Shown: in pieces, positions 1 through 37,123 of the stretch | Layout: each line of letters opens with the position of its first letter | Numbering within the stretch: position 1 is the first letter of the stretch | From: Paludibacter sp. | GTDB lineage: Bacteria > Bacteroidota > Bacteroidia > Bacteroidales > Paludibacteraceae | DNA length: 64,000 nucleotides | Assembly: GCA_034928085.1 (NCBI GenBank) | Contig: JAYFPG010000022.1 | Coordinates: 51,456 to 115,455 of the forward strand | Direction of reading: 5' to 3' | Position numbers and translations under genes: made by a program | Notes under the pieces: model-generated | Seen by the model: only the letters and a program-made list of their open reading frames with translations | The model's database searches: none | Told to the model about the DNA's origin: nothing

Positions 1-709
1 TTTTCAATTCATCATCGGAATATTGCCAGTATCTTGACCACCAATAGCCAAATGCGAATTTTGGAGGCATCGGGATTTTTCCGGCTATGTGCGTGAAATC
101 GAATAAAGCCTGTTTATAATCATGTCCATAACCGAAAAAGTACCAGTCGTATACATCCTTCCTCGTGTTTTCTTTTACCCAATGAGTCCATTGAGTGTCG
201 TCTACTAAGACCGGTGACTTTGAGTCGTCAACTAAAGCCCACCCATTTCGGGATATAATGCCTTCCTCGAGTTTATCCTCGTGCCATCCCTCAAGGCGAT
301 CGAGTGTTCGCATGGTTCCTTTCAGATTTTCTTCATCCAGCATTCCCGGTTTCCATATTTTCATTTTACCTTCTAACATAAAGCTTACAGACAGATTGTT
401 CGAATTGAATTTTTCGCCTTTTAGATAGGTTAATGTCAATTTCTCAGTTTGGATGATTAATTTCTTTTTCGAGTCAATCGCTCTGAATTTCGGTGTTTCC
501 AGATTTCTGTTGATGAATGCAAGCGTTGCTTCGTTCATAAAACTGCCATCAGCAGACCACTCCATTCTTATCAAAGAGGGAGTGAGAATCGTAAACCGGT
601 AGTTTTGACCGACAATTTGAGAGGCAGGATGTGCTGTGATAGAATTACCAGCCAATACTAAAACCGGACAAAAGCAAATGTATAAGATGAAAGAAAAAAT
701 GAATTTCAT
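1..709 (-). CDS. Glycoside hydrolase family 31 (alpha-glucosidase/xylosidase-like), 5' part only; runs off the window start; absent from the ORF track
   Basis: Manual translation from ATG at 709: MKFIFSFILYICFCPVLVLAGN (signal peptide)...YRFTILTPSLIRMEWSADGSF...WYFFGYGHDYKQALFDFTHIAGKIPMPPKFAFGYWWSRYWQYSDDELK. The P.PP..A.GYW.SR segment is the start of the GH31 barrel; the frame is open to the window edge. Confidence 0.85.
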   Translation of the reverse strand, partial: MKFIFSFILYICFCPVLVLAGNSITAHPASQIVGQNYRFTILTPSLIRMEWSADGSFMNEATLAFINRNLETPKFRAIDSKKKLIIQTEKLTLTYLKGEKFNSNNLSVSFMLEGKMKIWKPGMLDEENLKGTMRTLDRLEGWHEDKLEEGIISRNGWALVDDSKSPVLVDDTQWTHWVKENTRKDVYDWYFFGYGHDYKQALFDFTHIAGKIPMPPKFAFGYWWSRYWQYSDDELK

Positions 710-756
710 ATTGAAAAGGAAATCGAATATACAATTAGTAAATTTGATTCTTGAAA

Positions 757-2130
757 TTAGTTAACAACAAAGCTGAAGTTATTTGATGCGTTTTTTTGTT
801 TGAGAGACAGTATGTAGTTACCTTTTATAAGGTTGTTTTGTTCTATCAGATATTCAATGGTGTTGGGAACCGTTATTCCTGAATAAACAACTTTTCCAGA
901 TGAGTCAAAAATCTCAATAAGCTCATCATGCCTGAAACCCTGCTGATTTTTTACAACAAAAGAACCATTATTTGGATTAGGAAATAACTGAATGTTCGAT
1001 GCAGATACATTGTTTTTCACAGCAGAGGATTGTTCTGAAAGGATATGATTAATTTTGTCAGTGTAAACCGCTGCAAATTTATACATGCCTTTGTCGTTGG
1101 GATGGATATAATCAGCAATGTCTTCTGCAAAATTGAAATTAATTTCTTCTTTCGATAAATAATAGAGGTTTTTATATCCTTTGTCGATAAAATACTGATA
1201 CACTTTTCTGAGTTCGCTGTTGTCAAGTATAACCAGATCTTTTCTTGCTTTCCACATCTCCATATCGGCGTATCCAACATGTTCAGTGAGTAAAATTGCC
1301 GCATTAGGGTGGTATTTGGTAAGCGTGTCAACTGCACTTTTATATCTTGATTCAATATATTGAGGCATCGAACTGGTTGAATAATTAGGCAGACAATCAA
1401 TAATGAATATTTCTGCATCAATTCGGTTTATTACATCAATTACCTCTGGTTCAACTTTCCCTGCGCCACTGAAGCCAAGGTTGATTATCGGGCGATCAGA
1501 AAAGGTGCGTCCTATAATGCCGGTTATAGCATTCCCGGGACGAGAACAAGCCGCGCCATGTATTATCGAGGTACCATACATTACAATTGGTTTGATATTC
1601 TGAGGTACTTCAACAAATTCAAAATTTGCCCCGCTATTCACAGTTATTGATAAGGACGAGGTGATGGCAAATGTAGGAAAATACAACACGTATTCATATC
1701 CATTTGAATTGTAATATGAGTCATCTGGATTTAATTGACTATATGTAAAATAACTACCAACAATTCTAGTGTTGGGGTAACACCACTGCCATCCTTCTCC
1801 AGGTTTAAATGCATACATGTCAACACCATTTGCTCCAACAGCACTAAACCAGTTGTTACTTGTGTATTGGGAACTTAAATTATAATTAACCGTAATTGAA
1901 GTTGCATTCGATTTGAATCTAACATGTAATCCGCTTGAGCGAACCGCTTGATTCCAGGCATCACCGGGGATTTTATTTTGTGCATCTGCCGGAAATCTGT
2001 TGAAACTATTTTGTCCGTAACCATTTCCCCATACTACCTGTTTGCTCTGCTGTATCGGGTTGAAGGTGGTTTGTGAGTATATCAATTGTGATAATATAAT
2101 AATGAGATTTGTCAATAATATATTTTTCAT
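757..2130 (-). CDS. Secreted SGNH/GDSL esterase (GxDLY-type N-domain) with T9SS C-terminal sorting domain
   Basis: Signal peptide; GVDMY; YGTSIIHG (nucleophile block); INLGFSGAG; DYIHPN (DxxH); C-terminal LFPNP...EIFDSSGK...KGNYILSL...FSFVVN typical of a type-A CTD. Confidence 0.85.
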   Translation of the reverse strand: MKNILLTNLIIILSQLIYSQTTFNPIQQSKQVVWGNGYGQNSFNRFPADAQNKIPGDAWNQAVRSSGLHVRFKSNATSITVNYNLSSQYTSNNWFSAVGANGVDMYAFKPGEGWQWCYPNTRIVGSYFTYSQLNPDDSYYNSNGYEYVLYFPTFAITSSLSITVNSGANFEFVEVPQNIKPIVMYGTSIIHGAACSRPGNAITGIIGRTFSDRPIINLGFSGAGKVEPEVIDVINRIDAEIFIIDCLPNYSTSSMPQYIESRYKSAVDTLTKYHPNAAILLTEHVGYADMEMWKARKDLVILDNSELRKVYQYFIDKGYKNLYYLSKEEINFNFAEDIADYIHPNDKGMYKFAAVYTDKINHILSEQSSAVKNNVSASNIQLFPNPNNGSFVVKNQQGFRHDELIEIFDSSGKVVYSGITVPNTIEYLIEQNNLIKGNYILSLKQKNASNNFSFVVN

Positions 2131-2189
2131 GTATATATTTTTTTAACTAATGATTAAAAATAATTTAATAAGGGGTGTTTGGTGATTGC

Positions 2190-3131
2190 TTAATTTTGTT
2201 TTGCAATACACTTTTTTTTATGATTTGAGATATTCGATTTACTTTTCCAGTTCTTACTTTTCAGATAATCAATCAGAAGCTGAGGTCGATCAGTCTGAAT
2301 AACCCTGACTCCAAGCGTTTCTATCAAGAATCCATAAGCTTTATCCGGATCTTCAAGTGCCATGTCATCATCGTGACCTCCAACCATGGTATCCCACAAG
2401 GTATTATACCAGATCAGGCTTTTACCAACCAAAAGACTCTTCACTTCAACCGGCACAGGTGAGGTGTCTTTCGAAAAAATCAGTTCAAACATCTTTGGCT
2501 TGAGCGTGATATAAAAAGTGTTGATTTGTTCAATGGCATTTTTATTATCCAAATGAACGATAGGCATATAAATTACATCATCCAAAAACTCGCCGTATGT
2601 ACGGGCAACCTCTTCAGCCGGCTTTCCTCCTTTCATGATTATTTGATTCATTGTTCCTGTTTTCTTTAACAGAGCATATACTTCATCAAAAAACTTGTCA
2701 GCTCCATCCAGGTTGATCATTATTTTTCCTTTCGAGAAAAGTAAAGCTTCTTCCAGGGTGGGAATCAAATGTTTAGTCCTGATTCCACACCCATTTCTCA
2801 ATTTTAATGTTCTGATAGAATCCAGTGTCCAGTCTTCAACATTTCCTTTTCCGGTAGTAGTTCTGTTTAATGTTTGATCGTGCATAAGAATTAAATGTCC
2901 GTCTTTAGTTCTTTTAATATCTATTTCCACGATGTCTACTCCTCCCATTTTGATGCAACTTTCAATCGCGGCAATTGAGTTTTCAGGATAGTTTCTCCAG
3001 TCGCCCCTATGTGCCACTACCAATACCTCATCCAGGTATGGATTGTTAATTTTTGCAATGATCGAATCAACGCGGTTTTGTGCATTTAAGGACATAAATC
3101 CGCACAAGAATAATATAAATAATGCTCTCAT
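2190..3131 (-). CDS. Glycerophosphodiester phosphodiesterase (GDPD/GlpQ family), exported
   Basis: Signal peptide; VAHRG, VEIDI, LMHD, INLD and IQTDRP motifs. Confidence 0.92.
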   Translation of the reverse strand: MRALFILFLCGFMSLNAQNRVDSIIAKINNPYLDEVLVVAHRGDWRNYPENSIAAIESCIKMGGVDIVEIDIKRTKDGHLILMHDQTLNRTTTGKGNVEDWTLDSIRTLKLRNGCGIRTKHLIPTLEEALLFSKGKIMINLDGADKFFDEVYALLKKTGTMNQIIMKGGKPAEEVARTYGEFLDDVIYMPIVHLDNKNAIEQINTFYITLKPKMFELIFSKDTSPVPVEVKSLLVGKSLIWYNTLWDTMVGGHDDDMALEDPDKAYGFLIETLGVRVIQTDRPQLLIDYLKSKNWKSKSNISNHKKKCIAKQN

Positions 3132-3164: not shown

Positions 3165-5384
3165 TTATTTTACGTATTCAAATGAACCTGAACATCTTAT
3201 GTCGTCAGAAGCAGCTCCTGCAAATACCTTGAAATTTCCGTCCTCAACCTCCCATTGTTGACTTTTTTCGTTGTAGAATTGCAACGCTGTTTTATCTATA
3301 CTGAATGTTACGCTTTGTTCTTCTCCGGGATTCAAGTAGACCTTTTTAAACGATTTTAGTTCTTTTACGGGTCTGACAACAGTCGATTTCTCGTCGTTTA
3401 TGTATAGCTGAACGATTTCGGATCCAGCCCGGGTTCCGGTGTTTTTAATCTTCAGTGATATTTCAATGCTGTCGTTGTTCTGAATTTGTTTCCTGTTGAG
3501 GGCTAACTTGCTATACTCAAAAGAGGTATAGCTTAGTCCGTGACCAAATGCGAACAGGGGTTTTAATTTTTTATATTCAACCCAACGGTATCCTACGAAA
3601 ATATCTTCTTTATAATTTACCTCTTCTTTGGTTCCCGGGAATTCCCCCAGACAGTGTGCGCTGTTATCCTCCAAACGAACCGGGATTGTAAAGGGTAATT
3701 TCCCCGAGGGGTTAACATCACCAAAAAGAACCGAAGCCAAGGCGTTACCTGCCTCAGAGCCAGCATACCATCCATAAACGACAGCAGGTGCTTTGCTGAC
3801 CCAGGGCATCGTTACAGCGTTCCCACAGATTAGGATCACAACAGTATTGGGATTTACTCTTACCAATGCCTCAATAAGTTCGTTTTGACTATAAGGCAGA
3901 TCCATTGATTCGCGATCCTCACCTTCGGCATCTTGTTTTTTGTTTTTATTCAATCCACCAACGAAAATTACATAATCAGCTTGTTGGGCAACTTCAACAG
4001 CTTCTTTTAGGAGCTCATCCGCGGTTTTTCCTGTGGTGTTAATATTGATTTTACCCATGGGGTCATCTTTTCGTTCACCATAACTCTCATATCCCCGGGC
4101 ATATTGAATTTGGATGCTATCGCCAACACGTTTAAGTATGCCTTCTAAAGGAGTAACCTCATATTTAGCTTTCAAGGAAGAACTGCCACCTCCAATAGTC
4201 ATTTTTCTTGTTGCATTTTCTCCGATGACAACGATTTTATTGATTTTCTTTGTTTCAATTGGTAAGATTTGCCTCTCATTCTTTAACAAAACAATACCTT
4301 CCTGAGCAACTTTCTTTGCAACCATGGCATGCTCATTGGTTCCAAAAGTTCCAAAATAACGCTCTGAAGCCATATTTGTCCTGAAAATAAGTCGCAAAAT
4401 CCTTCTTACTTTATCATCGAGTTCTTTGGTTTCTATTTCACCATTTTGAATAAGTCTTAAATAAGGCTGTGCTAAGAAGTAGTTTTGATAGGCATTACTT
4501 GCACCCATTGTCAATCCATCTGTCCAGGTGCCAAATTCCATGTCAAGTCCGTTGCTGATGGCTAATTTTGTATCATAAACACCTCCCCAGTCAGAAACAA
4601 CGACCCCATCGAACTTCCAGTCTCGTTTAAGGATATCGTTTAATAAATATTGGTTATGACAACATTGCTCACCTTTATATTTGTTATATGCGCCCATAAT
4701 TGCCCATGCTCCTGCTACTTCCACAGCCGTTTTAAAAGCAGGTAGATATATTTCATGTAATGCCCTGTCGCTTACTTTCACATTTACCGAATGTCTGTAA
4801 GTTTCCTGATTATTAACAGCAAAATGTTTTACACAGGCTGCAACACCATTTTTTTGAACAGATTTGATATAAGGCACGACCATTTTTGAAGCCAGATATG
4901 GGTCTTCTCCCATGTATTCGAAATTCCTTCCATTGAGTGGAGACCTGTAGATATTAACACCAGGACCTAACAATACATTTTTATTGCGATACCTGGCTTC
5001 TTCGCCAATTGCATTTCCATAAATAGCCGACATTTCTGTATTCCAAGAGGCGGCCAGGCAAGTAAGCGCGGGGAAAGCAATACAGGAGTCATTTGTCCAA
5101 CCTGCTTGTTTCCATTCATCCCACAATACTTCTGCCCGAATACCATGAGGTCCGTCCGTCATCCAGTTTTCCGGAATACCCAACCGTGGTACACCTGCTG
5201 AACTGAATTTTGATTGCGCATGACAGATGGCAACTTTTTCTTCTAAGGTCATTCTCGATAAAGCATCTTCTATGCGCTCTTCAATATTTCTGTTTAAGTC
5301 GAGGTAAATTGGTTTTTGGGCAATTAAAACGATTGATATTATAGATAAAATGGTTATAAAAAAAAACTTTCTATATAGATTCAT
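3165..5384 (-). CDS. Glycoside hydrolase family 3 beta-glucosidase with C-terminal Fn3-like domain
   Basis: TDGPHG, GRNFEY.GEDP, KHF and VVSDW motifs. Start moved to MNLYRK (ATG at 5384), which gives a signal peptide; the ORF-track extension is Cys-rich and implausible. Confidence 0.93.
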   Translation of the reverse strand: MNLYRKFFFITILSIISIVLIAQKPIYLDLNRNIEERIEDALSRMTLEEKVAICHAQSKFSSAGVPRLGIPENWMTDGPHGIRAEVLWDEWKQAGWTNDSCIAFPALTCLAASWNTEMSAIYGNAIGEEARYRNKNVLLGPGVNIYRSPLNGRNFEYMGEDPYLASKMVVPYIKSVQKNGVAACVKHFAVNNQETYRHSVNVKVSDRALHEIYLPAFKTAVEVAGAWAIMGAYNKYKGEQCCHNQYLLNDILKRDWKFDGVVVSDWGGVYDTKLAISNGLDMEFGTWTDGLTMGASNAYQNYFLAQPYLRLIQNGEIETKELDDKVRRILRLIFRTNMASERYFGTFGTNEHAMVAKKVAQEGIVLLKNERQILPIETKKINKIVVIGENATRKMTIGGGSSSLKAKYEVTPLEGILKRVGDSIQIQYARGYESYGERKDDPMGKININTTGKTADELLKEAVEVAQQADYVIFVGGLNKNKKQDAEGEDRESMDLPYSQNELIEALVRVNPNTVVILICGNAVTMPWVSKAPAVVYGWYAGSEAGNALASVLFGDVNPSGKLPFTIPVRLEDNSAHCLGEFPGTKEEVNYKEDIFVGYRWVEYKKLKPLFAFGHGLSYTSFEYSKLALNRKQIQNNDSIEISLKIKNTGTRAGSEIVQLYINDEKSTVVRPVKELKSFKKVYLNPGEEQSVTFSIDKTALQFYNEKSQQWEVEDGNFKVFAGAASDDIRCSGSFEYVK

Positions 5385-5480
5385 TTTTATTTTTATAAAA
5401 AGATTAAATAAATTTCTTGTACAACAATGGCATGAGAATCTAATGCTTAATTGTTTCAAAAAGTAAAGCGGGATGTTCAA

Positions 5481-6611
5481 TTATCGATATCCTTTTATTC
5501 GAAGATAACTAATTACATTTTCACAGATGTCGGTTTGAATCATACGAACATCCCCGTTTATCAAGTTATCCATCTGAGAGAAATCTCCGGATATAAATGT
5601 GTTCTCAAAATCACTATCAAGAATGTTGACTGAAACAAGCATACCTCTTTTGGTTGCATCTATCATGCTGTTTTGTCCCACTTGTGAAAAGTCAAACTGT
5701 AAGAAAAATGGTCTGGGATAGTTTAATAATTGTTCGTAATTTGTGAGCGAACCTCCCCATGGGTATGCATGCGCATTCAAAGAAAGCTGAAACAATTCAT
5801 TTACATAGGCAGGTTTATTTCCGGTGTAAAAGAAGCACCTGTCAATCATTCCGCATTCATTCACAATGTTGAAAATACCGGTTGTTGAAGCATCGCGAGG
5901 CGAGTAATCAATGTTATATAAGATTCTTCCTCTTCCAGCTAAGAGTGCCTCCTTTAGTGTTGGCATTACTGCATTTGTCGGATTCCCATTCAGATCCCTG
6001 AGTTTAAATTGTCGAATTTCATTTAGCGTTAAATCTGCAATTTTTCCGGATCCTGTAGTTGTTCTGTTGATGGTGGGGTCATGACAAACCACAATTTGCC
6101 CGTCTTTTGTCACATAAGTATCAATTTCAACAACATCCACACCTGCTTTAAAACAGGCCTGAATTGCCGCAATTGAATTCTCTGGTATTGTTTTGTTTGC
6201 TGTTGTTCCCCTATGGGCCATGACCCATATTTTGTCGTTTTGTTTTAATTCTTTTAGTTTATTCGTCAACCCAAATCCTTCAACTTTCAACGAGCTTTCA
6301 CAGAAAACTTCTTTGCCTGTACTACTGATGAATGATGCCTTGATTATATATGTTCCATCTTTTTCGTAAGATTTGTAGTTTAATGCATCTGAGGATTCTG
6401 TTCCATCACCAAAGTCAAAGTGTAAATCCTTGATTTTTTTTGGCATATTGTGAAGTTTAATCGTAATTACTTCACCTTGTGCCGGAAAACTATTGCTCAA
6501 TGAGATAGAGACTTCACCTAATGTGATGTCATCCTCTTCATTGCAAGCATAAAAAACAAATACGGAAAAGAAGAATATAAAAATTAATGTTATCGATTTC
6601 TTATGAACCAT
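5481..6611 (-). CDS. Lipoprotein with PKD-like domain and GDPD domain
   Basis: Lipobox FYAC followed by acidic NEEDD; FDFGDG (PKD); MAHRG, VEID, CHD and IQTD (GDPD). Confidence 0.88.
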   Translation of the reverse strand: MVHKKSITLIFIFFFSVFVFYACNEEDDITLGEVSISLSNSFPAQGEVITIKLHNMPKKIKDLHFDFGDGTESSDALNYKSYEKDGTYIIKASFISSTGKEVFCESSLKVEGFGLTNKLKELKQNDKIWVMAHRGTTANKTIPENSIAAIQACFKAGVDVVEIDTYVTKDGQIVVCHDPTINRTTTGSGKIADLTLNEIRQFKLRDLNGNPTNAVMPTLKEALLAGRGRILYNIDYSPRDASTTGIFNIVNECGMIDRCFFYTGNKPAYVNELFQLSLNAHAYPWGGSLTNYEQLLNYPRPFFLQFDFSQVGQNSMIDATKRGMLVSVNILDSDFENTFISGDFSQMDNLINGDVRMIQTDICENVISYLRIKGYR

Positions 6612-6701: not shown

Positions 6702-8276
6702 TTATTGTTTAATAATTCTTTTTGCAATATTATTAACTAAAACAACATATAACCCTTTGGGAAAATTTGTAACGTCAATACTTTCAATATTTTCAGCACA
6801 ATTAATTTGTTTGTATGTTTTTCCATTGATGTCGAATAACGATATCTTTGCTCCTTCTGCTCCCAGTACATTGAAATTGTTTGTTACAATGGTAGGATAC
6901 ACAACAAATGCTTCCATCTGTTTAGTTTCATTTGTTGTCGTTACACCTGTGTATTGGAATGCACCAACAGAAACGGGTTCAATAGTCGGACGAGCAGTTC
7001 CTCTACCATCTAATGCTAAGTCGGAAGTAGTGAAAATATTGTTAATTACACTATCAGTATAATTTTGAATCTTTGTCAGTGTTGAACCTGTTATGTTCTC
7101 TTTTAAAGCGATGGTTTGGGGGTAACCTGTATTGTTTGCTAAAACATTACTTCCAAAAACAGCACTATATTGTTTATTTAATGAATCAGTTGATTGAGAG
7201 ATTAAAGTGCCGGTACCGCCAACTTTACCGAACACGTTGTTGCCATTAGAGGTAAAGTTATATGCAGTGCCATTAATGAAAATGCTTGGGTTTGTCTCAT
7301 CACTATTTGTAATGATACTATTGTATGCGAAAACTTTGTTGGTAGATTCCATCCGGATATCAAGTCCAACCGTTAGATTTTTTGTACAGGTATTATTTGC
7401 AACGGTTGATGAAATTAAATATAACCATCCTGCTCCGTTCAAACCTCCACCTCCGGTTCCAACAGAATTGTTTGCAATTGTTGTGTTTATACAGAAAGTT
7501 TTACATTCCGCAGCACCGAACATGATGGCTCCTGACCAGTCACCGGTATTGATATTGCCTGATAACTGGCAGCGTTCAAGAACTAACCTGTCAGTATGAT
7601 CATATACCCGGATTGCGGCACCTCTGTTAGCAACGACATTATCTGTGAAAACAGTTGCATAACAGTAGACAATTGCTTTGTTTGTGAACAAACCTGCTCC
7701 TCCGGCGTTGATATGGTAAGTTATATCAGATTTGTTGTTTGTAATAACACAGTATAATATGTCACATTGTGAACCATTCAATACCTGAATTCCGGGTCTC
7801 AAGGTGGCTGTGCTGTTTGCATAGCCGTTTGTAAATGTTATCCCTTTAAGTGTTACTTTCTCCGGAGAGTTAATAGTGACCAATCTCGCATCTCCGGCAT
7901 TGGGTATTCCATCATTGTTCAAGTCTCCGCTGATGATAGTCGGCGTTAACGAAGGATAGCTAATTTCCGGCACGGTAGTTCCGCTCAGTGAAGGGTCAAA
8001 ACCTCCAATAATAGAAATTCCATTGATAATGTTCATAGTGACTGAAGATGACGCTGGTTTGTAGGTCCCACCAGTCATGTAAATTACGTCTCCTTCTTCA
8101 AAATCACTCGCAAGTTTTGTAATTAAATTATCAAACGACAGAGCGTCATCCCACGATAATCCTGTACCTGTACCATCAGTTTTTACAAAATAATTTGTTG
8201 CAGTTACCTGCATACTCAAAATAAAACAAAATGTGAAAATGCAAATTGCAATACTGGTGAAATTTAATTTTTTCAT
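6702..8276 (-). CDS. T9SS-secreted right-handed beta-helix (pectin-lyase-like fold) protein of unknown activity
   Basis: Signal peptide; N/T/I-rich coil repeats (ITNNKS, FTDNVV, LSGNIN, IANNSV; GAG/GAAI/GGG turns); C-terminal VYPT...LFDINGK...KGLYVV...KRIIKQ CTD. Confidence 0.75.
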   Translation of the reverse strand: MKKLNFTSIAICIFTFCFILSMQVTATNYFVKTDGTGTGLSWDDALSFDNLITKLASDFEEGDVIYMTGGTYKPASSSVTMNIINGISIIGGFDPSLSGTTVPEISYPSLTPTIISGDLNNDGIPNAGDARLVTINSPEKVTLKGITFTNGYANSTATLRPGIQVLNGSQCDILYCVITNNKSDITYHINAGGAGLFTNKAIVYCYATVFTDNVVANRGAAIRVYDHTDRLVLERCQLSGNINTGDWSGAIMFGAAECKTFCINTTIANNSVGTGGGGLNGAGWLYLISSTVANNTCTKNLTVGLDIRMESTNKVFAYNSIITNSDETNPSIFINGTAYNFTSNGNNVFGKVGGTGTLISQSTDSLNKQYSAVFGSNVLANNTGYPQTIALKENITGSTLTKIQNYTDSVINNIFTTSDLALDGRGTARPTIEPVSVGAFQYTGVTTTNETKQMEAFVVYPTIVTNNFNVLGAEGAKISLFDINGKTYKQINCAENIESIDVTNFPKGLYVVLVNNIAKRIIKQ

Positions 8277-16915: not shown

Positions 16916-16949
16916 TGATTTTCTTGATGATATATACTAATGAGTTTTT

Positions 16950-23162: not shown

Positions 23163-23204
23163 CTCAATGTGTTTTTTGATGTTATGTAAACTGATTTTTA
23201 AAAT

Positions 23205-23236
23205 TTCGGGCAGATTTATTGCTAAACCTGCCCGAA
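23205..23236. repeat. Intergenic stem-loop, copy 2 of the GGCAGATTT family
   Basis: ttcgggcagattta-ttgc-taaacctgcccgaa. Confidence 0.65.
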
Positions 23237-23262
23237 TATACAGCGGTTATGCTATGTCAGGC

Positions 23263-24726: not shown

Positions 24727-24801
24727 ACTTTTAAATTTTAAAATAAACAATTCTTAATTATCTTTGATTAATATATTCTTCTGATTAAAATCTGAAATTA
24801 T

Positions 24802-29263: not shown

Positions 29264-30094
29264 TTAAGGGATAATTATAGTTACCATAACCGGATAGTGG
29301 TCCGACTCAATTTGCATGTTGCCAAAAGGAGAGGTTCCGATTACTTTTGATTCAAGCACTTTGTATTTATTCCCCTGATTTAACATCAGGATATAATCGA
29401 TACATTTGTTGCCACCAGGGATCGTGTTTTCCTGACCACTTATTAAAATCCAGCTTTTATAGAGTTCTTTCATGGTGTCAGAAACTGGTGTACTATTCAG
29501 GTCGCCACCTAAAAATATAGGCTTAGGTGTGCTTCCGAATAATTCTTTAATCTTCGCAGTCAGTTCTTGCGCTTGTAATTTTCGTGTTGCTTCATCACCT
29601 CCAAAGTGGGTGCAAACCACAATATATTTTGGGAACTCAGCAATAAGGAACCCTCTTTGCTCGTCGGTGCTAGTTAATTGATAATATGACGATTTGCTGA
29701 ACGAACGTGGTGTTACAACCCCGATGCCGTAACTTCCCTCCTGATAGGAAGGAATTGTTGATGCAAAACGGAAATTCCAGGAATTCAATTCAGCAAGTTG
29801 TTTGATTTGATATACACGATTTGTACGGGTTGTCATGCTATCAAGTTCCTGTAAACATACAACATCCGGTTTTAAATCCTTGAGTATATTCGCAATTACT
29901 CCATAATTGCCATTTGGATACTCAGGGTTTTTCCCAAAATGATATACGTTGTAAGATATAAAACGCAGTGTGTCTCCTGACAGGTTGTTCGTTGGTTCCG
30001 GTAAATACTCTTCAAGTTCATCACTTTTACAGGAAGGAAAAATGAACAATGAAAGCAGGATAATCAAACTTAAAAAATAAAATGGCTGTTTCAT
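29264..30094 (-). CDS. EEP-family phosphoesterase lipoprotein
   Basis: Lipobox PSC followed by KSDELEE; SYNV, QELD, GDLN, IDYI, SDH. Confidence 0.88.
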   Translation of the reverse strand: MKQPFYFLSLIILLSLFIFPSCKSDELEEYLPEPTNNLSGDTLRFISYNVYHFGKNPEYPNGNYGVIANILKDLKPDVVCLQELDSMTTRTNRVYQIKQLAELNSWNFRFASTIPSYQEGSYGIGVVTPRSFSKSSYYQLTSTDEQRGFLIAEFPKYIVVCTHFGGDEATRKLQAQELTAKIKELFGSTPKPIFLGGDLNSTPVSDTMKELYKSWILISGQENTIPGGNKCIDYILMLNQGNKYKVLESKVIGTSPFGNMQIESDHYPVMVTIIIP

Positions 30095-30128: not shown

Positions 30129-31907
30129 TCAGAAATCCAACCCGTCATTCCAGTTTGGGTTTTGAGTTAACACACCGTTTGTGAGTAAACGGTCGTTGGT
30201 TGGAATAGGGAAGAAGTAGTCGCGGTCTTCTCTCCATATACGCGCCGTATTCTTGTGTGGGTCCATGTAGCCGTTATTCCCATTGGAAAGCAACATGTTA
30301 ACGCCGATTTCAAAAAATGCAGGTGCGAATGAAGGTGGTTGTGTGCCGATATAGAAGCAAACATCAACCATTCCATTGTTATCAAGATCGTAATCGCCTG
30401 GCCCCGGCACATACATCCCGTGCATAGGTTGCTCAAATGCTTTTCCTTCTTTCCACCGGATTAAGTCGTAATATCTGAAACCCTCCATGATTAGCTCTAT
30501 TGTACGTTCACGGCGAATTTCCAGGATAACGCCCTTATTTGATCCCTGATCTACATTTGGATAACCTGTTGTTGGTGATTCAAGATATGGGTCAGGGTTC
30601 GCGTTCGCGATTATCAGATTAAGATTTGGCATGCTTACCCGGTCTCTCAGTGGTTTTATCGATCGGTTGATGTCGTTTTGAGTTAATGTTCCCAATTCAG
30701 CTTTTGCTTCGGCAAAGTTCAGATAAACCTCGGCTGCACGAAATAAAATGATGTCATTGCAGGATTTGCTTACCTGGTCGTAGGTTGCATCCATCACCCA
30801 TTTGGTAGGTTGATAGCCGGTCATGGTTACCGACAAATTAGGAGCTAACTTTGCATTTGAACCAATACGGGTGTATCCCGGTGTGCGAATTGTTTGTGCC
30901 AAACGCGGGTCACGGTTGAGACATTCATCTTTAAAGCTTTTTGTCTCGTATCCCGGTGTCTCTGTATATCTCACTCCTGAAGTCATTAAATAGGAATTGA
31001 CAACTTTCTTTGTCAAACTTGGTCGCCCGCCTGTGAGCGCCAGCATAGCATTGTTAGCATCATGAAACAAACCGAGTGAGCTGTTATAGTCTCTTGCCAG
31101 AATAACTTCATCATTTTTGGCATTTAAACTTGAAAACAAATCACGGTACGCATTTGCTGCGGAAGAGGTGTACATTCTGTATCCGCTGTTCGTGATGAAA
31201 TCATCAGCGGCATCCGCTGCCAGTTGAAGATAATAATTGTGATCATGCCCGGGATAAGATACTCCGTGATATTTGCGGAAGGTTCCTTCAAAAAGACATA
31301 CACGTGATTTCATTGCCAGTGCTGTCCACTTGCTTATTTTATACAAGTTCCTGTCGCGACCTAAATGCTCAATTGCGAAATCCAGGTCCTCGATTATTTT
31401 TGTCATAACCAGTTCGCGAGTGTCACGTGGTTTGTATAAATCTGCATCAGCAGAACCAAGTGGACGGTCGTACCAGGGTACATCACCAAAACGTCTTACT
31501 TTATCAAAGTAGAAGTATGCCCTGAAAAAACGGGTAATTGCCTCATACTTATTTCGTAGATTCTCATCGGGACAGTTAGGCAGACCTGCCATACACTCGT
31601 TGATTGTTCTCAGTTGAGTCCATGACCAACCACCCCCGGTACCGGGGATTTCCCTTGTTCCGCGAATCGCTTCTGAAAGAGTCTGGTTTACCACTACATC
31701 TGACTCTTCATTATAAACTGCCGCTGCACTTGGAAGAAATGTATAGAATTGATTCGTGTACAATTCAAGTTCTGTCTCTGTACGGAAGAAAAATTCAGGG
31801 TATGTCCTGTCTTTCGGAAATTTATCAAGCGCATCTTCGCAGGCAATCAAAAAAGGGAAAAAAGTGAGGATTGCCACTGTATATTTTATAAAATTCATAT
31901 TTTTCAT
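30129..31907 (-). CDS. susD: SusD/RagB lipoprotein (PUL2)
   Basis: Lipobox IAC; RFFRAYFYF...FGDVPW; FRAAEVYLNFAEA; EIRRERTIEL..EG.RYYDL.RW. Confidence 0.94.
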   Translation of the reverse strand: MKNMNFIKYTVAILTFFPFLIACEDALDKFPKDRTYPEFFFRTETELELYTNQFYTFLPSAAAVYNEESDVVVNQTLSEAIRGTREIPGTGGGWSWTQLRTINECMAGLPNCPDENLRNKYEAITRFFRAYFYFDKVRRFGDVPWYDRPLGSADADLYKPRDTRELVMTKIIEDLDFAIEHLGRDRNLYKISKWTALAMKSRVCLFEGTFRKYHGVSYPGHDHNYYLQLAADAADDFITNSGYRMYTSSAANAYRDLFSSLNAKNDEVILARDYNSSLGLFHDANNAMLALTGGRPSLTKKVVNSYLMTSGVRYTETPGYETKSFKDECLNRDPRLAQTIRTPGYTRIGSNAKLAPNLSVTMTGYQPTKWVMDATYDQVSKSCNDIILFRAAEVYLNFAEAKAELGTLTQNDINRSIKPLRDRVSMPNLNLIIANANPDPYLESPTTGYPNVDQGSNKGVILEIRRERTIELIMEGFRYYDLIRWKEGKAFEQPMHGMYVPGPGDYDLDNNGMVDVCFYIGTQPPSFAPAFFEIGVNMLLSNGNNGYMDPHKNTARIWREDRDYFFPIPTNDRLLTNGVLTQNPNWNDGLDF

Positions 31908-31918: not shown

Positions 31919-34900
31919 TTAGAATGTTATGTCAATATTTACCGAAAAGATTTTCTGGAACGGATAGATATTTGCCTTGCTTGAGGCTTCTCCTTCTGCC
32001 GATGCCTGTTCCGGGTCTACGACCTTCGAATGTATTTTGCTGAATGTTAGCAGGTTTTCTCCGCTGAAATAAAAGCGTAATTTTTCTAAAGCTACTTTGT
32101 TAACTAATTTAGTAGGGAGTGTATAGCCTACGGTAAGGTTCTTTAACCTCAAATATGCAAGATCCTGTAAATATCGGTCTGTTGGAGCACGTAATGAACG
32201 ATTGCTTGCTGATCCTGAAGCAGCATAACCCCTGTGGCGTGGAAAATATGCATCAGGATTATCTTCTGTCCACACATCTTTCATGAAGTTTTTGTGTATG
32301 AAAGTAGCGTATGGACGATTATATGGTCCCCAAAACATATATGCATCGTTGCTTGGCCACCAGTTCTGTTTGCCAATTCCCTGTAAGAATACAGAAATGT
32401 CAATCCCATTCCAGGAGGCATTTGCAGAAATACCATATCGGTATCGAGCCTGAGAATTCCCAATTACAACCTGATCGCCGCTGTTTCCTACCCTGTTTTC
32501 TCCTTGTGTTATTTTGTTGTCATTGTTGAGATCAACAAATTTAATATCTCCGGCTCTAAGTTTTCCTTCGGCTCCGGCAGCAATTAAAATTTCCTGGTTT
32601 ACCAGGGTCTGATCAATTGACCAGTTAGCAGCTTCTTCGTCACTGGCAAATAATCCGTCAGTTTTGTATCCCCAGATTTCCCCCCAGGTTTGTCCTTCGT
32701 AATAATCGTTTAACATCTTGTTGGGGTTGTCAAATCTGGTTATTTTGGCAGTGTTATCTCCGAGTGATAAGGTTGCGCCATACCTGAAAGGTTTATTTGC
32801 CAGAATGAACTTATCATTCCATGATAAAACCAATTCATATCCCTTGGTTCTGAGATCAGCTGCGTTTTCTCTGGGAGGCGTTGTTCCATAAACTGATGGA
32901 AGTGTTTTTCCTTTAACCAGCATGCCTTCTGTATCACGAATATAAAAATCGCCATTGAAATTTAATTTTGAATCGAAGAAACTCAAATCAAAGCCAAGGT
33001 TACTCGTTGTAACGACTTCCCAACTAATATTCGATGCAACAGGAGCAGAGAAGGATGCATATTTACCTTTGGCATCTGTACCAAAAACATAATCTAAAGT
33101 CGATGTTGATACCGTTCGTATATATGGATAATACCCGCTTACATTTTGATTGCCTAAACTACCGTACGATACTCTAAATTTTAAGTTGTCGATAATGTCT
33201 GAAAGTGGGTTGAAAAATTTCTCTTCACTCATTCGCCAACCTGCAGAAAATGAAGGGAAAAATACATATCTCAAACCACGCATGAATTTCGACGAACCAT
33301 CATTACGTCCGCTGATCTCCAATAAATATTTTCCCTGATAATCATAGTTGAAACGTCCAAATCCACCCATAATAGCATACTCGTTTTGGCCACCTGTTCC
33401 TTCAAATCTGGCCATGCCTGTAGTTTCGTCAATAGCCGTAAGACCCATATCGTTTAAATCCTCAGATAATAGGTTCCATCCAACAATCCCAATGTCTTTG
33501 TAGCTACGGGTCTCGTAGTTGAAACCTCCCAACAGTGATAAATTATGATCGCGAATGCCTTTCTTGTATGTAGCAAAAATATTGGTTGCATAATATTCAT
33601 TTCTGTTGAATTTCTCGTTGAGCTTATTGTCCCCTCGCCCGGAAGTAACATAAGACAATTCTCCCGGATACATAGAATATGGTATATTCACACTTCTGTT
33701 CATGGCAGTATAGCCATTAAACGCATAGCTGAAGTTACCTTTAATTTCGAGTCCTTTAAATGGTCTGATTGTTAACTCGGCAATGTTAGTCAGGTTTACA
33801 TAAGTATCTTCATTAGCGTGTTTCCCGTGTGTGATAAGGGCACTCCATCCATCCATAACGCCCGCACTGTTGAAAATTGTCATGTAAACAGGAGTGCCGT
33901 CAGGGTTAACCGGAACGTAACTGGCTAAGCCATGCACGTTTTGATAAACAAATGAGTTGTTCACCGCACCTGATCCCGGGAAAGTATAGCTGTTTCGATA
34001 GAAACTGGTATTGTTGCTGATTGAAATGTATTTGTTTATATCTGCTGTAACTTTTGACCGAAGATTGGCTTTCTTGTATTTATCTGTGTTGATACGCATA
34101 ATACCGTCTTCAGCATGAAAACCTCCTGAAACAAGAAATTTAACTTTATCGTTTCCGCCGCTTAATGATATGTTGTGTTTTTGCATCGGCCGATTTTCAT
34201 TGTACAGATAGTGATACCAATCAGTATTTGCATAATATATATATGACTCTTTTCCTGCCCGGTTTTGGGTTACAACCCAGGGACGAGTGGGATCTTCAGT
34301 TTTATCATTCCTTCTTGCCCATAATTCAAGCATATCCGCTTCGGTATACCTTGAATAATTTACACCCTGAGTGGTACGGTAGAATAAATCGTTGATATAT
34401 ACCGAATAGTATCCACGTGTTTCAAAATCAGTTGAGGTTGTTGATTGACCAATACCATAGCTTCCATTATAACTCACCTTAATTTTATCCGAATCACGAT
34501 CTTTTGAAATTGTTGTAACTAATATTACCCCATACGCAGCTCGTGCTCCATAGATGGCCGAAGCTGAAGCATCTTTAAGTACTGTAACTGATGCGATGTC
34601 ATTCGGATTCAGGTGCTCCAAACTGGCTTCAATACCATCTATAAGCACCAATGGTGAACCTCCGTTAATAGAGGTTGCTCCACGGATATTGAGCGTACCA
34701 CTACCTCCCGGGCGTCCCGATGTCATGTTCACATTTAAGTTAGGAACAGCTCCCTGAAGTAAGCTGACAACTGAACCGCTGGGTCTGTTTTGTATCTGAT
34801 CTGCCGATACAACACTAACCGCCCCGGTCAGGTTGACCTTTTTCTGAGTGCCGTATCCCACAATGACAACTTCTTCCAGGTTTGCAATGTCTTCTTTCAG

Positions 34901-35476
34901 AATTACATTGAAAGAGGACTTGCCGGATGTGTTTATTGTTTCACTTTTGTATCCTACATAAGAAATTTGTATGTTTTCCCCCTTACTTAACGAAAGTGTA
35001 AACCTTCCGTCAAAATCTGTGATTGTACCTTCTGTGGAATTTACGTCCATCACCGTTGCTCCGATGATGGGCTCTCCGGATGCATCGGTAACTACACCGC
35101 TGATTGTTTTTGAGGCAGGCTTTGCAACTTCTTTTTTCTTGGTCAGCACAATTGTATTATTGTTGTAGCTGGCTTCAAGTCCTTTCTGATCAAGCACTGT
35201 CTTTACAACTTCAACCAGCGGTTTGTTGCTGACCTGAATGGAAACATCTTTTTTTGTGTCCATTAAGATGTCTCGATAAATAAACGTGAAGTTAGTCCTG
35301 GACTCGATTTGTTTCATGAACTCCTGAATACTCACATTCCGGAGATTTAGTGTGATTGTTTGTGAGGTGTTCTGGGCGTTCATCTGGATTACCCCTCCCA
35401 ACATTGCCAACACCATAATTAGTTTTTTAAAGATACCCTTTAAATTTGATTTTTGTGGATTGTGTTTTCTCAACAT
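31919..35476 (-). CDS. susC: SusC/RagA TonB-dependent transporter with STN extension (PUL2)
   Basis: LEEVVIVGYGTQKK; LKDASASAIYGARAAYGVILVTT; barrel C-terminus. Confidence 0.96.
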   Translation of the reverse strand: MLRKHNPQKSNLKGIFKKLIMVLAMLGGVIQMNAQNTSQTITLNLRNVSIQEFMKQIESRTNFTFIYRDILMDTKKDVSIQVSNKPLVEVVKTVLDQKGLEASYNNNTIVLTKKKEVAKPASKTISGVVTDASGEPIIGATVMDVNSTEGTITDFDGRFTLSLSKGENIQISYVGYKSETINTSGKSSFNVILKEDIANLEEVVIVGYGTQKKVNLTGAVSVVSADQIQNRPSGSVVSLLQGAVPNLNVNMTSGRPGGSGTLNIRGATSINGGSPLVLIDGIEASLEHLNPNDIASVTVLKDASASAIYGARAAYGVILVTTISKDRDSDKIKVSYNGSYGIGQSTTSTDFETRGYYSVYINDLFYRTTQGVNYSRYTEADMLELWARRNDKTEDPTRPWVVTQNRAGKESYIYYANTDWYHYLYNENRPMQKHNISLSGGNDKVKFLVSGGFHAEDGIMRINTDKYKKANLRSKVTADINKYISISNNTSFYRNSYTFPGSGAVNNSFVYQNVHGLASYVPVNPDGTPVYMTIFNSAGVMDGWSALITHGKHANEDTYVNLTNIAELTIRPFKGLEIKGNFSYAFNGYTAMNRSVNIPYSMYPGELSYVTSGRGDNKLNEKFNRNEYYATNIFATYKKGIRDHNLSLLGGFNYETRSYKDIGIVGWNLLSEDLNDMGLTAIDETTGMARFEGTGGQNEYAIMGGFGRFNYDYQGKYLLEISGRNDGSSKFMRGLRYVFFPSFSAGWRMSEEKFFNPLSDIIDNLKFRVSYGSLGNQNVSGYYPYIRTVSTSTLDYVFGTDAKGKYASFSAPVASNISWEVVTTSNLGFDLSFFDSKLNFNGDFYIRDTEGMLVKGKTLPSVYGTTPPRENAADLRTKGYELVLSWNDKFILANKPFRYGATLSLGDNTAKITRFDNPNKMLNDYYEGQTWGEIWGYKTDGLFASDEEAANWSIDQTLVNQEILIAAGAEGKLRAGDIKFVDLNNDNKITQGENRVGNSGDQVVIGNSQARYRYGISANASWNGIDISVFLQGIGKQNWWPSNDAYMFWGPYNRPYATFIHKNFMKDVWTEDNPDAYFPRHRGYAASGSASNRSLRAPTDRYLQDLAYLRLKNLTVGYTLPTKLVNKVALEKLRFYFSGENLLTFSKIHSKVVDPEQASAEGEASSKANIYPFQKIFSVNIDITF

Positions 35477-35503: not shown

Positions 35504-36484
35504 TTAATTCCTGAATATTACGATTGTATCTTTGTGTCTTCTGAATTGAATGTGCTGATACTGAATTTTAAAAGCTTCTAATGCAGTCTCAATTTTTTCT
35601 TCTTTGAAAGTTCCTGATATCAGGTCGTTAGCTATATCGGGACAGTTGTTGATGATTTTTACTCCATACCATTCCTCCAAACGGGTCAGCACATCGGTAA
35701 ATTTCTCAGAGCTGAACTTCAGCCTGTTGTACATCCATGCTGTTTCGAGATCATTATCGGTATGCATAATCTGCATCATGTTGGTTTGTTTGTTGAAAAT
35801 AGCTTTTTGGTTCGGTTTCAGATAGTAGTCCTGAGATAAGTCGTTACTCCTCAGTTTTACATGACCTTCTACCAAAGAAGTTTCAATTATATCTGAATAA
35901 TCTCTTGCTTTCGCGTTAAATGAGGTGCCCAGCACTTCAACTTCCAGTCCATTCATGTTTACAATAAATGGTTTTGTCTTGTCCTCGGCGACCTTGAAAA
36001 AAGCTTCTCCGGTTAGTGTTACTTGTCGAAGTTTTTTGTCAGCCTGCGAATATTCAATTGTGCTGTTAGCATTAATCCATACCTTGGTTTGATCAGGCAA
36101 GGTAATCATGGCTTTATTGCCTCTTTCCACACTTACAGCCATGTTGCCCGGATCATCCTGCCTGTTAAGCGTGTACATCAACACAGTACCAACCACAATC
36201 AATGGGACTAATACGGCAGCAACCCGCAACAAACGGGAACGTCTGATTTGTTTTTTATCACACTCGATATAGAAGTTCAGCTTATTCCGGATGTCATCTT
36301 TTGTACTTGTATCCATGTTACCGGAAAGGATATTCTCATTCCATTCATCATGCATTGTTTCCGACAGTTCCTCATTCGAAATGTCATTCAGGTAATGCCG
36401 CATCTCCATGAATTCATCCCGTCTGATGTTGCCATAGAGAAATTTCTTATATAAGTTCTTAATATGTTTGTTCATTTTTGTCAT
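35504..36484 (-). CDS. FecR-family anti-sigma factor (PUL2)
   Basis: TLPDQTKVWINANS, LTGEAFFKV, VLGTSFN; ATG at 36484 (or 36475) preferred over the TTG at 36505. Confidence 0.92.
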   Translation of the reverse strand: MTKMNKHIKNLYKKFLYGNIRRDEFMEMRHYLNDISNEELSETMHDEWNENILSGNMDTSTKDDIRNKLNFYIECDKKQIRRSRLLRVAAVLVPLIVVGTVLMYTLNRQDDPGNMAVSVERGNKAMITLPDQTKVWINANSTIEYSQADKKLRQVTLTGEAFFKVAEDKTKPFIVNMNGLEVEVLGTSFNAKARDYSDIIETSLVEGHVKLRSNDLSQDYYLKPNQKAIFNKQTNMMQIMHTDNDLETAWMYNRLKFSSEKFTDVLTRLEEWYGVKIINNCPDIANDLISGTFKEEKIETALEAFKIQYQHIQFRRHKDTIVIFRN

Positions 36485-36520
36485 CTGTTGTGTTACACGT
36501 TTCAAATTTGTGTTGGTACC
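36481..36520 (-). promoter_or_regulatory. Putative ECF promoter GGTAC-N13-AAACGTGTAACACAACAGATGA, copy 1
   Basis: 22-bp identity plus identically spaced GGTAC with 37169-37208. Confidence 0.6.
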
Positions 36521-36529
36521 GTTTCTTTT

Positions 36530-37123
36530 TTATGCTATAAAACATAATTCGAAAACAAGCAGGTACAGAATATTGGTTTTCAACAGACCTCCTCTGATTT
36601 TTTTCAGGGCGGTGGTGAGCTGATTCTTAACGGTTTGTTCAGAAAGATTGAGGGTTTCCGAAATCTCCTCGATTGTTTTGCCTTTTTCCCGGCTTAGTTC
36701 GTAAATTTCCAATTGTCGACCGGTAAGGAGTTTTTTGCACAGCTTGAGTGTCTTTACAAAATCATCGTATAACAACTTTGTCTCGGCTTCTGTGTTTTCT
36801 TCCTGACCGGCTTCTTCTTTATAGCCGATGTAGAGTTCCATTTCTGTTTTGTTGATTTGTTTACGGAACAGGTCAATCAGCCGATGATTGGCTATTGTAA
36901 ATAAAAGTGACTGAAGCGATCCGTCAACACTCAGTGATTCCCTCATTGTCCATAAACGGAGGAATGTCTCCTGTACGATGTCTCCGGCAGTCTCCTGCGA
37001 TTTGGTGTGTGCCAGTGCAAAGCTGTAGAGTTTGTCGGCATACATGTCATAAATCGCGTTGAAGGCTTTGTGTGAGCCTCCCCGCAATTCTTTGATGTAG
37101 GATTTCAGGATGTTGTTTTCCAT
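36530..37123 (-). CDS. ECF RNA polymerase sigma-70 factor (PUL2)
   Basis: AFNAIYDMY...DIVQETFLRLW...LFTIA; LTGRQLEIYELSR...EEISETLNLSEQTVKNQL; start moved to MENNIL (37123). Confidence 0.93.
   Translation of the reverse strand: MENNILKSYIKELRGGSHKAFNAIYDMYADKLYSFALAHTKSQETAGDIVQETFLRLWTMRESLSVDGSLQSLLFTIANHRLIDLFRKQINKTEMELYIGYKEEAGQEENTEAETKLLYDDFVKTLKLCKKLLTGRQLEIYELSREKGKTIEEISETLNLSEQTVKNQLTTALKKIRGGLLKTNILYLLVFELCFIA

Follow-up and report, generated by a model that had tools for sequence, protein, structure and literature searches.

In Flavobacterium, phosphate utilisation (Pus) systems have been described, in which phosphodiesterases and organophosphate transporters are encoded along with a SusC/SusD-like pair, PusCD (Lidbury et al. 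2020, PMC8115612). PusCD1 and PusCD2 of Flavobacterium johnsoniae, which are accompanied by extracytoplasmic function (ECF) sigma/anti-sigma factor pairs, are needed for growth on glycerophosphoinositol (GroPI) and phosphatidylinositol, and pusCD-like pairs, so far uncharacterised, lie beside glpQ-like genes in plant and gut Bacteroidota (Connolly et al. 2026, bioRxiv preprint 10.64898/2026.09.03.749221). The ligand of a Pus system is a glycerophosphodiester or its phosphomonoester, and Pus loci are described as poor in carbohydrate-active enzymes (CAZymes) and as induced by phosphate depletion. Here, we analysed a stretch of 64,000 nucleotides from a contig of an uncultured environmental Paludibacter sp. 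(JAYFPG010000022.1, positions 51,456 to 115,455), further called the window, which carries two adjacent ECF sigma/FecR/SusC/SusD units, locus A upstream and locus B downstream. According to the best-supported reading of their sequences, these separately regulated SusCD loci would form a glycosidase-rich variant of the Bacteroidota organophosphorus (Pus-like) systems, a new variant that can be regarded as a hybrid of Pus and the polysaccharide utilisation locus (PUL).

The likeness to Pus, the closest known system, lies in the SusC/SusD-like pair, the ECF/anti-sigma regulator and phosphodiesterases of the phospholipase C (PLC)/glycerophosphodiester phosphodiesterase (GDPD) superfamily. Next to the SusCD-like pairs, the window encodes two GDPDs, two endonuclease/exonuclease/phosphatase (EEP) domain proteins and a major facilitator superfamily (MFS) transporter of the organophosphate:phosphate antiporter (OPA) family, and thus the combination of pair, phosphodiesterases and organophosphate transporter by which Pus is defined. 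Whereas few or no CAZymes are found near Pus genes, the window contains four glycoside hydrolase (GH) genes and two SGNH esterase domains; what it adds to Pus amounts to two GH20, a GH3, a GH31, the SGNH esterases, the EEPs, type IX secretion system (T9SS) cargo and the OPA antiporter. Its phosphodiesterases (DUF4996-type GDPD and EEP) belong to other subfamilies than those of Pus, and the likeness rests on gene content and architecture.

Annotation was based on open reading frames (ORFs) of at least 100 codons, Pfam and NCBIfam scans, sequence matches to the PDB and BLAST among the window proteins. Between positions 1 and 37159, all ORFs of this size that were treated as genes are encoded on the minus strand and separated by short gaps. 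All genes listed in a preliminary description of this DNA, made by a model from the letters alone, were found back in these scans (two GDPDs, two EEPs, the OPA-family MFS, two GH20, GH3, GH31 and two SGNH esterase domains), and five further genes were added, encoding a Tat-signal oxidoreductase, two GLUG-domain proteins and two beta-helix proteins. In the order of transcription, the genes are:

36530-37159, minus: ECF sigma factor of locus A (Pfam Sigma70_r2/r4_2/ECF)
35504-36505, minus: FecR-type anti-sigma factor of locus A (Pfam FecR and FecR_C)
31919-35476, minus: SusC_A, TonB-dependent transporter with STN signalling domain (TIGR04056, E 2e-264; STN, Plug)
30129-31907, minus: SusD_A lipoprotein (Pfam SusD_RagB, E 3e-41)
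29264-30094, minus: short EEP phosphoesterase of 276 aa, probable surface lipoprotein (PF03372; Cys22 followed by KSDELEE)
27814-29244, minus: fusion of a GLUG module (residues 1-235) and an EEP domain (PF03372, residues 245-436), 476 aa
26308-27765, minus: GLUG-domain T9SS cargo protein hyp_A1, probably non-catalytic (AlphaFold2 (AF2) model, pLDDT 89; Foldseek 3n6z, E 6e-19)
24802-26196, minus: Tat-signal Gfo/Idh/MocA oxidoreductase, resembling a periplasmic polyol/sugar dehydrogenase (Pfam; twin-arginine-like N-terminus)
23263-24750, minus: GLUG-domain protein hyp_A2, paralogue of hyp_A1 (74% identical; weak Glug motif)
21330-23162, minus: GH20 beta-N-acetylhexosaminidase of 610 aa (PF00728, E 4e-119; best PDB match 6q63, E 4e-154)
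19861-21243, minus: OPA-family MFS, predicted organophosphate:phosphate antiporter (TIGR00881, E 7e-72)
16950-19658, minus: fusion of GH20 and GxDLY-SGNH esterase, strain-variable (PF00728, E 2e-121; PF14606/PF14607)
16121-16678, minus: ECF sigma factor of locus B (Pfam)
14951-15979, minus: FecR-type anti-sigma factor of locus B (Pfam)
11511-14807, minus: SusC_B with STN domain (TIGR04056, E 7e-203)
9739-11493, minus: SusD_B lipoprotein (Pfam SusD_RagB, SusD-like_3)
8311-9717, minus: right-handed beta-helix lipoprotein hyp_B1, candidate binding protein or depolymerase (no Pfam family; AF2 and Foldseek)
6702-8276, minus: beta-helix paralogue hyp_B2 with T9SS C-terminal sorting domain (44% identical to hyp_B1; Por_Secre_tail)
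5481-6611, minus: PKD and GDPD phosphodiesterase (PKD-GDPD), probable surface lipoprotein (PF03009, E 4e-23; Cys23 followed by NEEDD)
3165-5480, minus: GH3 beta-glucosidase, likely true start at 5384 (Pfam GH3 N, C and Fn3-like)
2190-3131, minus: GDPD and DUF4996 phosphodiesterase (GDPD-DUF4996) with plain signal peptide, probably periplasmic (PF03009 and PF16387)
757-2130, minus: GxDLY-SGNH esterase with T9SS sorting domain, probably secreted or at the surface (PF14606, PF14607, PF18962)
2-709, minus: GH31 alpha-glucosidase, N-terminal 236 codons, running off the window (translation; PDB 7wj9, E 5e-32)

The PUL side of the hybrid is seen in two pairs of TIGR04056 and SusD_RagB proteins encoded on the same strand as the two GH20, GH3 and GH31. 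Although the loci had been called twins, this holds for their architecture and not for a duplication, as the two SusC proteins share 27% identity and BLAST does not align SusD_A with SusD_B. STN-SusC, SusD, ECF and FecR together with periplasmic exo-glycosidases are also characteristic of the classical ECF/anti-sigma glycan PULs, such as the Bacteroides N-/O-glycan loci with GH20 enzymes like 6q63. In contrast to these, the window has no recognisable endo-glycanase, its probable surface enzymes are phosphodiesterases, and its inner-membrane importer would be an organophosphate antiporter instead of a sugar permease. A scan for sigma-70 promoters and terminators over 14500-24000 gave fewer sites than in shuffled sequence and is uninformative, the model not covering Bacteroidota promoters.

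For comparison, 80 loci around the nearest GDPD-DUF4996 genes were collected, their ORFs were compared with the window proteins, and synteny was counted over 79 of them. The nearest of these genes, with 72% protein identity, are from Paludibacter metagenome-assembled genomes (MAGs) among the GTDB representatives, which do not include the window genome. The same OPA-family MFS (49-71% identical) is the next gene after GDPD-DUF4996 in 42 of the 79 loci and at most two genes away in 48, and SusC is encoded upstream of GDPD-DUF4996 in 45. The commonest layout, ECF-FecR-SusC-SusD-GDPD(one or two)-(alkaline phosphatase (AP)-superfamily protein)-MFS, was found in Bacteroides cellulosilyticus, B. intestinalis, B. 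xylanisolvens, Segatella copri, Dysgonomonas and others. Counterparts of SusC_A (40-48% identical) and SusD_A (44-48%) are encoded directly before GDPD-DUF4996 in Bacteroides, Segatella and others, an identity of 40-48% being high for the SusC and SusD families. Together with the intact residues of the GDPDs and EEPs and the precedent of PusCD1/2 (10.64898/2026.09.03.749221), this synteny supports the phosphodiester substrate put forward in the preliminary description. Taken over the genera, a conserved module of SusCD, a DUF4996-type GDPD and a distinct OPA transporter is widespread in Bacteroides, Segatella, Dysgonomonas, Muribaculaceae and Sphingobacteriales.

The glycosidases are not a general part of this module. 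Searches with hidden Markov models over the 80 loci, which cover the fetched flanks only, counted EEP in 2, NAGPA in 3, GH20 in 3, GH3 in 3 and GxDLY-SGNH in 8 of them, and the association of GDPD, EEP and GlpT with glycosidases that had been proposed as a check is therefore weak; the core consists of SusCD, GDPD and MFS, and only rarely is it elaborated into the glycosidase-rich form. Elsewhere, GDPD-DUF4996 holds the slot after SusD_A; in the window and in close relatives of it, this slot is taken by two EEP genes. This suggests an equivalent role for the EEPs and looks like the displacement of one type of phosphodiesterase by another. The extras found across the related loci comprise NAGPA, GH20, EEP, NPP, PHP, SASA/GDSL esterases, NanE and phosphohexomutase. 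In a Paludibacter-like MAG (L010), the genes encode an MFS, an EEP, NanE, a phosphohexomutase, an EEP, a beta-helix module-SASA esterase fusion, a GDSL esterase, GDPD-DUF4996 and GH3; in Pseudopedobacter (L057) they encode SusC, SusD, NAGPA, an NHL protein, an EEP, GH20, an NHL-T9SS protein, GDPD-DUF4996 and the MFS; and in L022 a single protein joins DUF4988 and NAGPA. The GLUG module of the window is elsewhere fused to an EEP or to NAGPA (phosphodiester glycosidase). These fusions and the NAGPA, NanE and mutase neighbours point to glycans with N-acetylhexosamine (HexNAc) phosphodiesters and to HexNAc-1-phosphodiester chemistry, and the neighbours possibly make import of a sugar phosphate as plausible as that of glycerol-3-phosphate.

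Among the related loci, some further arrangements were observed. Muribaculaceae contain a minimal cassette of GxDLY-SGNH, GDPD-DUF4996 and MFS, with no SusC/D in the fetched flank (L058, L066); in L067 no MFS was found. In Paludibacter (L001 and L007), fn3/PQQ-like beta-propeller proteins, a metallo-beta-lactamase-like protein and a PHP+DUF5001 phosphoesterase are encoded between SusD and GDPD-DUF4996, a further variant of the module. The AP-superfamily protein located between the GDPDs and the MFS in gut Bacteroides (L004 10973-12478, L014 9165-10670, L018 10972-12474 and similar) carries a Ser-type sulfatase signature, SSPTR...TG, and could be a sulfatase or a formylglycine-dependent phosphodiesterase, between which the signature does not discriminate. 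In Mediterranea (L089 10001-17431), a distant EEP and a GH31 lie beside a prephenate dehydratase (PDT)/aminotransferase/DAHP-synthase-chorismate-mutase set such as flanks the window loci (37406-41746), which may be a remnant of common neighbourhood ancestry.

In both GDPDs, the catalytic motifs HR, EN, ExD and HD are intact: GDPD-DUF4996 has H41-R42, E50-N51, E69/D71 and H84-D85, and PKD-GDPD has the same set, with ENS at the second motif. The Pfam GDPD match of both covers just the first ~100 model positions. GDPD-DUF4996 scores below the GlpQ/UgpQ equivalog cut-off (63 versus 264 bits, NF006989); its best structure match is PDB 3i10, an uncharacterised protein of B. thetaiotaomicron (E 2e-103), and a literature search on DUF4996 found no paper mentioning it. 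A guess that 3i10 corresponds to the locus tags around BT3158-BT3163 was dropped; the search for it returned just an unrelated SusE-like paper. The teichoicase GlpQ of Bacillus subtilis, whose action on poly(glycerol phosphate) is impeded by substituents (PMC7086022; PDB 5t91), is of the same family and has the same N-terminal catalytic motifs. The similarity is, however, confined to about the first 80 domain residues (E 8e-15 and 6e-12), the C-terminal half of the window enzyme being of the DUF4996 type, and the window host is Gram-negative, so that the polymer would be foreign to it. Given the hindrance of GlpQ by substituents, glycosidase and esterase partners would be logical.

An alignment of 20 EEP homologues shows the invariant residues N49, E83, D198, N200, D265 and H266, which can be read as the usual EEP catalytic set. 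In the GLUG-EEP fusion, the N-terminal part is 57% identical to the GLUG proteins and the C-terminal part 54% to the short EEP. Compared with the PDB by sequence and by profile, the EEPs gave superfamily-level matches only, no characterised subfamily being close (profile E-values of 5e-10 for APE1, 1.5e-6 for beta-hemolysin and 6e-4 for 4c1r). Identification as a mannose-6-phosphatase of the BT3783 type, a sphingomyelinase C or an apurinic/apyrimidinic endonuclease was rejected, there being no close full-length similarity, and TDP2 likewise matches at superfamily level. Homologues with about 30-35% identity occur in non-PUL contexts and are uninformative.

With respect to localisation, the homologues of PKD-GDPD are lipoproteins with acidic residues directly after the cysteine, whereas 96 of 107 GDPD-DUF4996 homologues lack a lipobox and have a plain signal peptide. 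The residues after the cysteine are interpreted on the basis of the Bacteroidota lipoprotein export signal. Comparing these residues in PKD-GDPD and the short EEP with the plain signal peptides of GDPD-DUF4996 indicates a two-tier layout, in which the former two would be exposed at the surface and the latter would be periplasmic. The surface endo-glycanase and periplasmic exo-glycosidase of PUL logic would here be matched by a surface and a periplasmic phosphodiesterase. That the likely surface lipoproteins are phosphodiesterases suggests that the backbone is cut at phosphodiester bonds. In agreement with the earlier claim that no backbone enzyme is recognisable, the Pfam scans of the loci revealed no mannosidase, chitinase, endo-glucanase or glucuronidase family; the claim holds in this respect, but the two beta-helix proteins remain as unassigned candidates.

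The MFS scores 242 bits on the OPA subfamily model TIGR00881, and below every curated equivalog cut-off: GlpT gave 212 versus 632 bits (TIGR00712/NF008433), with similarly low scores for UhpC (199), PgtP (173) and UhpT (162). The assignment to the OPA family can thus be kept, while the label GlpT, given earlier, cannot. The 2-kb block with the MFS gene has a GC content of 0.46, compared to 0.37-0.40 on either side, which could be due to membrane-protein composition or to separate acquisition. In Escherichia coli, glpT-glpQ encodes a glycerol-3-phosphate:phosphate antiporter and a periplasmic glycerophosphodiesterase. The genetic coupling of a secreted GDPD to an OPA-family MFS in the 42 related loci resembles this arrangement, and by analogy the SusCD-GDPD-DUF4996-MFS core would be a Bacteroidota outer-membrane version of glpTQ. 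It differs from glpTQ in missing the equivalog cut-offs and in the addition of an outer-membrane SusCD step, surface enzymes and glycosidases, and in the window GDPD and MFS lie ~17 kb apart, in different loci.

As to the glycosidases, the closest structure to GH3 is PDB 8va7 (CapGH3a, E 6e-272), an enzyme with a preference for beta-1,6 glucosides. The N-terminal 236 aa of GH31, the fragment that was compared, are closest to PDB 7wj9, LlGH31_u1, a nigerose-specific alpha-1,3-glucosidase. The GH31 assignment made earlier proved right for the family, but the window holds just the first 236 codons, with a weak Pfam match (E 0.015); an identical and overlapping contig (L085) extends the region by ~1.1 kb to the left of the window and lengthens GH31 to 599 aa (PF01055, E 3e-59). 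On the same contig, the gene call for GH3 is 739 aa. The GH20 at 21330-23162 appears from its PDB matches to be a generic beta-hexosaminidase, and the GH20 domain of the 16950-19658 fusion was assigned by Pfam only. This fusion, which lies between the two loci, is missing from a collinear contig that is otherwise 91% identical (L091). There, a gap of ~200 bp (20342-20547) is all that separates the MFS gene from the ECF gene of locus B, indicating that loci A and B are stably adjacent and that their accessory content is variable.

The oxidoreductase is nearest to the families of inositol 2-dehydrogenases and glycoside 3-dehydrogenase, all below cut-off. Its identification as GH109 (NAD-dependent alpha-N-acetylgalactosaminidase) was rejected, as no alpha-N-acetylgalactosaminidase is among the nearest structure matches. 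In the model of hyp_A1, Foldseek recognised a domain like that of the uncharacterised BACOVA_03286 (3n6z) and a C-terminus resembling the T9SS C-terminal domain. The model of hyp_B1 is poor (pLDDT 54, from an alignment of two sequences) and shows short repeated strands; its Foldseek matches are exclusively beta-helix lyases, tailspikes and epimerases, with TM scores of 0.2-0.3. From this model, hyp_B1 and hyp_B2 would belong to the right-handed beta-helix fold class, an assignment usable at the level of the fold class alone.

From sequence and synteny, the following mechanism can be proposed. A sugar-decorated, O-acylated phosphodiester glycopolymer would be bound at the surface, for which SusD, the T9SS-displayed GLUG proteins and the beta-helix proteins are candidates. 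The short EEP of locus A and PKD-GDPD of locus B, as surface lipoproteins, would cleave the polymer to fragments, while the secreted SGNH esterase would take off acyl groups. SusC would import the fragments, and signalling from STN over FecR to the ECF sigma factor would induce each locus. In the periplasm, GH20, GH3 and GH31 would remove beta-HexNAc, beta-glucose (probably 1,6-linked) and alpha-glucose (probably 1,3-linked), the GH20-SGNH fusion would cleave esters, GDPD-DUF4996 and GLUG-EEP would hydrolyse the leftover phosphodiesters, and the Tat-exported dehydrogenase might oxidise the freed polyol or sugar. Finally, the OPA antiporter would take in an organophosphate, either glycerol-3-phosphate, by analogy with glpTQ, or a sugar phosphate.

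For a phosphodiester-linked glycopolymer of any kind as the substrate class, we estimate a probability of about 0.5. Teichoic acids carry beta-GlcNAc side groups, alpha- and beta-glucose substituents, gentiobiosyl or alpha-1,3-linked glycolipid anchors and D-alanyl or acetyl esters on glycerol-phosphate repeats. These structures fit the inferred activities, and a teichoic-acid-type cell-wall polymer from bacterial necromass is the best-fitting known class; near-identical DNA was found in wastewater, groundwater, sediment and subsurface metagenomes. Fungal wall material fits as well, and the computed evidence does not discriminate between the two. Within the broader class, with which it overlaps, teichoic acid specifically is a possible substrate that we put forward tentatively. 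Of the preliminary description, which had proposed a locus for teichoic acid utilisation, the phosphodiester substrate and the import of the product by an OPA-family MFS are supported, and teichoic acid is not singled out over other phosphodiester glycoconjugates. Its statement that no SusC/D system for teichoic acid has been characterised agrees with our literature searches, which yielded no paper tying the two together.

Several observations weigh against a Pus-PUL hybrid acting on such a polymer. GroPI, the ligand of PusCD1, is small (~334 Da by our calculation), so that a SusCD pair does not by itself point to a polymer. Glycosidases are missing altogether from most of the related loci, and those of the window could therefore have accumulated beside the other genes and act on a different glycan; the gene for the GH20-SGNH fusion varies between strains. 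By its scores, the MFS cannot be assigned to GlpT, the EEPs could be diesterases, monoesterases or nucleases, and surface exposure of the lipoproteins is deduced solely from the residues after the cysteine. Possibly, the beta-helix proteins are conventional polysaccharide depolymerases; locus B would then be a glycan PUL of the ordinary type, with an accessory function for trimming phosphoglycerol. A search for metatranscriptome RNA runs with the locus found none.

One rival explanation is a simple Pus-like scavenging of organophosphates, in which SusCD would import small glycerophosphodiesters or phospholipid head groups (GroPI, glycerophosphoglycerol (GroPG), glycerophosphoethanolamine (GroPE)) or lysolipids; SGNH would deacylate, GDPD and EEP would free glycerol-3-phosphate or inositol phosphate, the Gfo/Idh/MocA protein would oxidise inositol and the MFS would import the phosphate ester, the glycosidases being incidental. 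The related loci, mostly with SusCD, GDPD and MFS alone, the minimal cassettes of Muribaculaceae, the inositol dehydrogenases among the nearest characterised relatives of the oxidoreductase and the growth of F. johnsoniae on GroPI and phosphatidylinositol by means of PusCD1/2 with their ECF/anti-sigma pairs are all in line with it. We nevertheless consider it unlikely for the window, where six glycosidase/esterase genes are interspersed among the phosphoesterases on one strand with short gaps, where a single-diester substrate hardly explains both a surface and a periplasmic GDPD, and whose gene set is tied to sugar-phosphodiesters by the GLUG-NAGPA fusions and the NAGPA, GH20 and NanE neighbours elsewhere. 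Still less probable is that locus B is an ordinary polysaccharide PUL, with a beta-helix lyase or hydrolase as its backbone enzyme and locus A functionally independent, acting on a glucan or acidic glycan with phosphoglycerol and acyl groups (e.g. osmoregulated periplasmic or cyclic beta-glucans) from which the GDPDs and SGNH trim the side groups. The fold class of hyp_B1 and hyp_B2, shared with polysaccharide lyases, tailspike depolymerases and epimerases, would suit this explanation, as would the fusion of a homologous beta-helix module to a SASA carbohydrate esterase in L010 and the absence of a relation beyond family level between the SusC/D proteins of the two loci. The confidence of the beta-helix model is low, however, phmmer gave no beta-helix homologue in the other 79 loci, and loci A and B are adjacent in a relative too, with one MFS common to both.

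A phosphoglycan other than teichoic acid as the substrate, overlapping with the class of phosphodiester-linked glycopolymers, seems somewhat unlikely. It could be a glycosyl-1-phosphate capsule or exopolysaccharide, fungal wall material (phosphomannan, or beta-1,6/alpha-1,3 glucan linked to glycosylphosphatidylinositol (GPI) remnants, and chitin fragments) or plant and fungal glycosyl-inositol-phosphoceramides (GIPC), with EEPs acting like sphingomyelinase/ISC1-type phospholipases C and the oxidoreductase acting on inositol. The resemblance of GH3 to a beta-1,6-preferring glucosidase and of GH31 to a nigerose-specific alpha-1,3-glucosidase would agree with it, and GH20 suits chitooligosaccharides. 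Beta-1,6-glucosides, alpha-1,3-glucosides and chitooligosaccharide linkages all occur in the fungal wall. Furthermore, the presence of NAGPA, NanE and the mutase in related loci speaks for HexNAc-1-phosphate chemistry, there is a weak match of the EEP profile to sphingomyelinases C, and GIPC has been discussed as a Pus target (10.64898/2026.09.03.749221). On the other hand, none of the mannosidase, chitinase, endo-glucanase and glucuronidase families is recognisable in the loci, the GDPD motifs are GlpQ-like and not like those of phosphatidylinositol-specific phospholipase C, and the EEPs match sphingomyelinase no better than apurinic/apyrimidinic endonucleases.

Elsewhere in the window, all on the minus strand except for the kinase/regulator pair, other features were observed. 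A 730-aa ORF (50957-53149) is an odd fusion of a urea-transporter domain (PF03253, E 7e-47) and an M23 peptidase domain. At 42177-44928, a C39-peptidase ABC exporter of the bacteriocin-export type lies beside a 171-aa ORF with no Pfam match, and is followed by a divergent histidine kinase/response regulator pair (45694-47755). Downstream of loci A and B, a BspA-type leucine-rich-repeat protein, a LytTR-domain regulator and a patatin-like phospholipase are grouped at 56930-60762.

Few of the polymers that hold phosphorus and carbon in bacterial biomass are as abundant as teichoic acids. It is a rather doubtful but far-reaching possibility that the SusCD-GDPD(DUF4996)-MFS loci of the window, gut Bacteroides and Segatella are the first outer-membrane SusCD machines dedicated to Gram-positive teichoic acids, with surface phosphodiesterases as depolymerases and a new OPA subfamily importing glycerol-3-phosphate. 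If so, they would constitute a route of necromass recycling in sediments, wastewater and guts, and the PUL paradigm would extend to backbones cleaved at phosphodiester bonds. Apart from the teichoic acid reading, the window shows how the core module is extended by glycosidases, esterases, EEP enzymes and T9SS cargo, and its enzymes are concrete candidates for probing which substrates are handled by the newly recognised Pus family.

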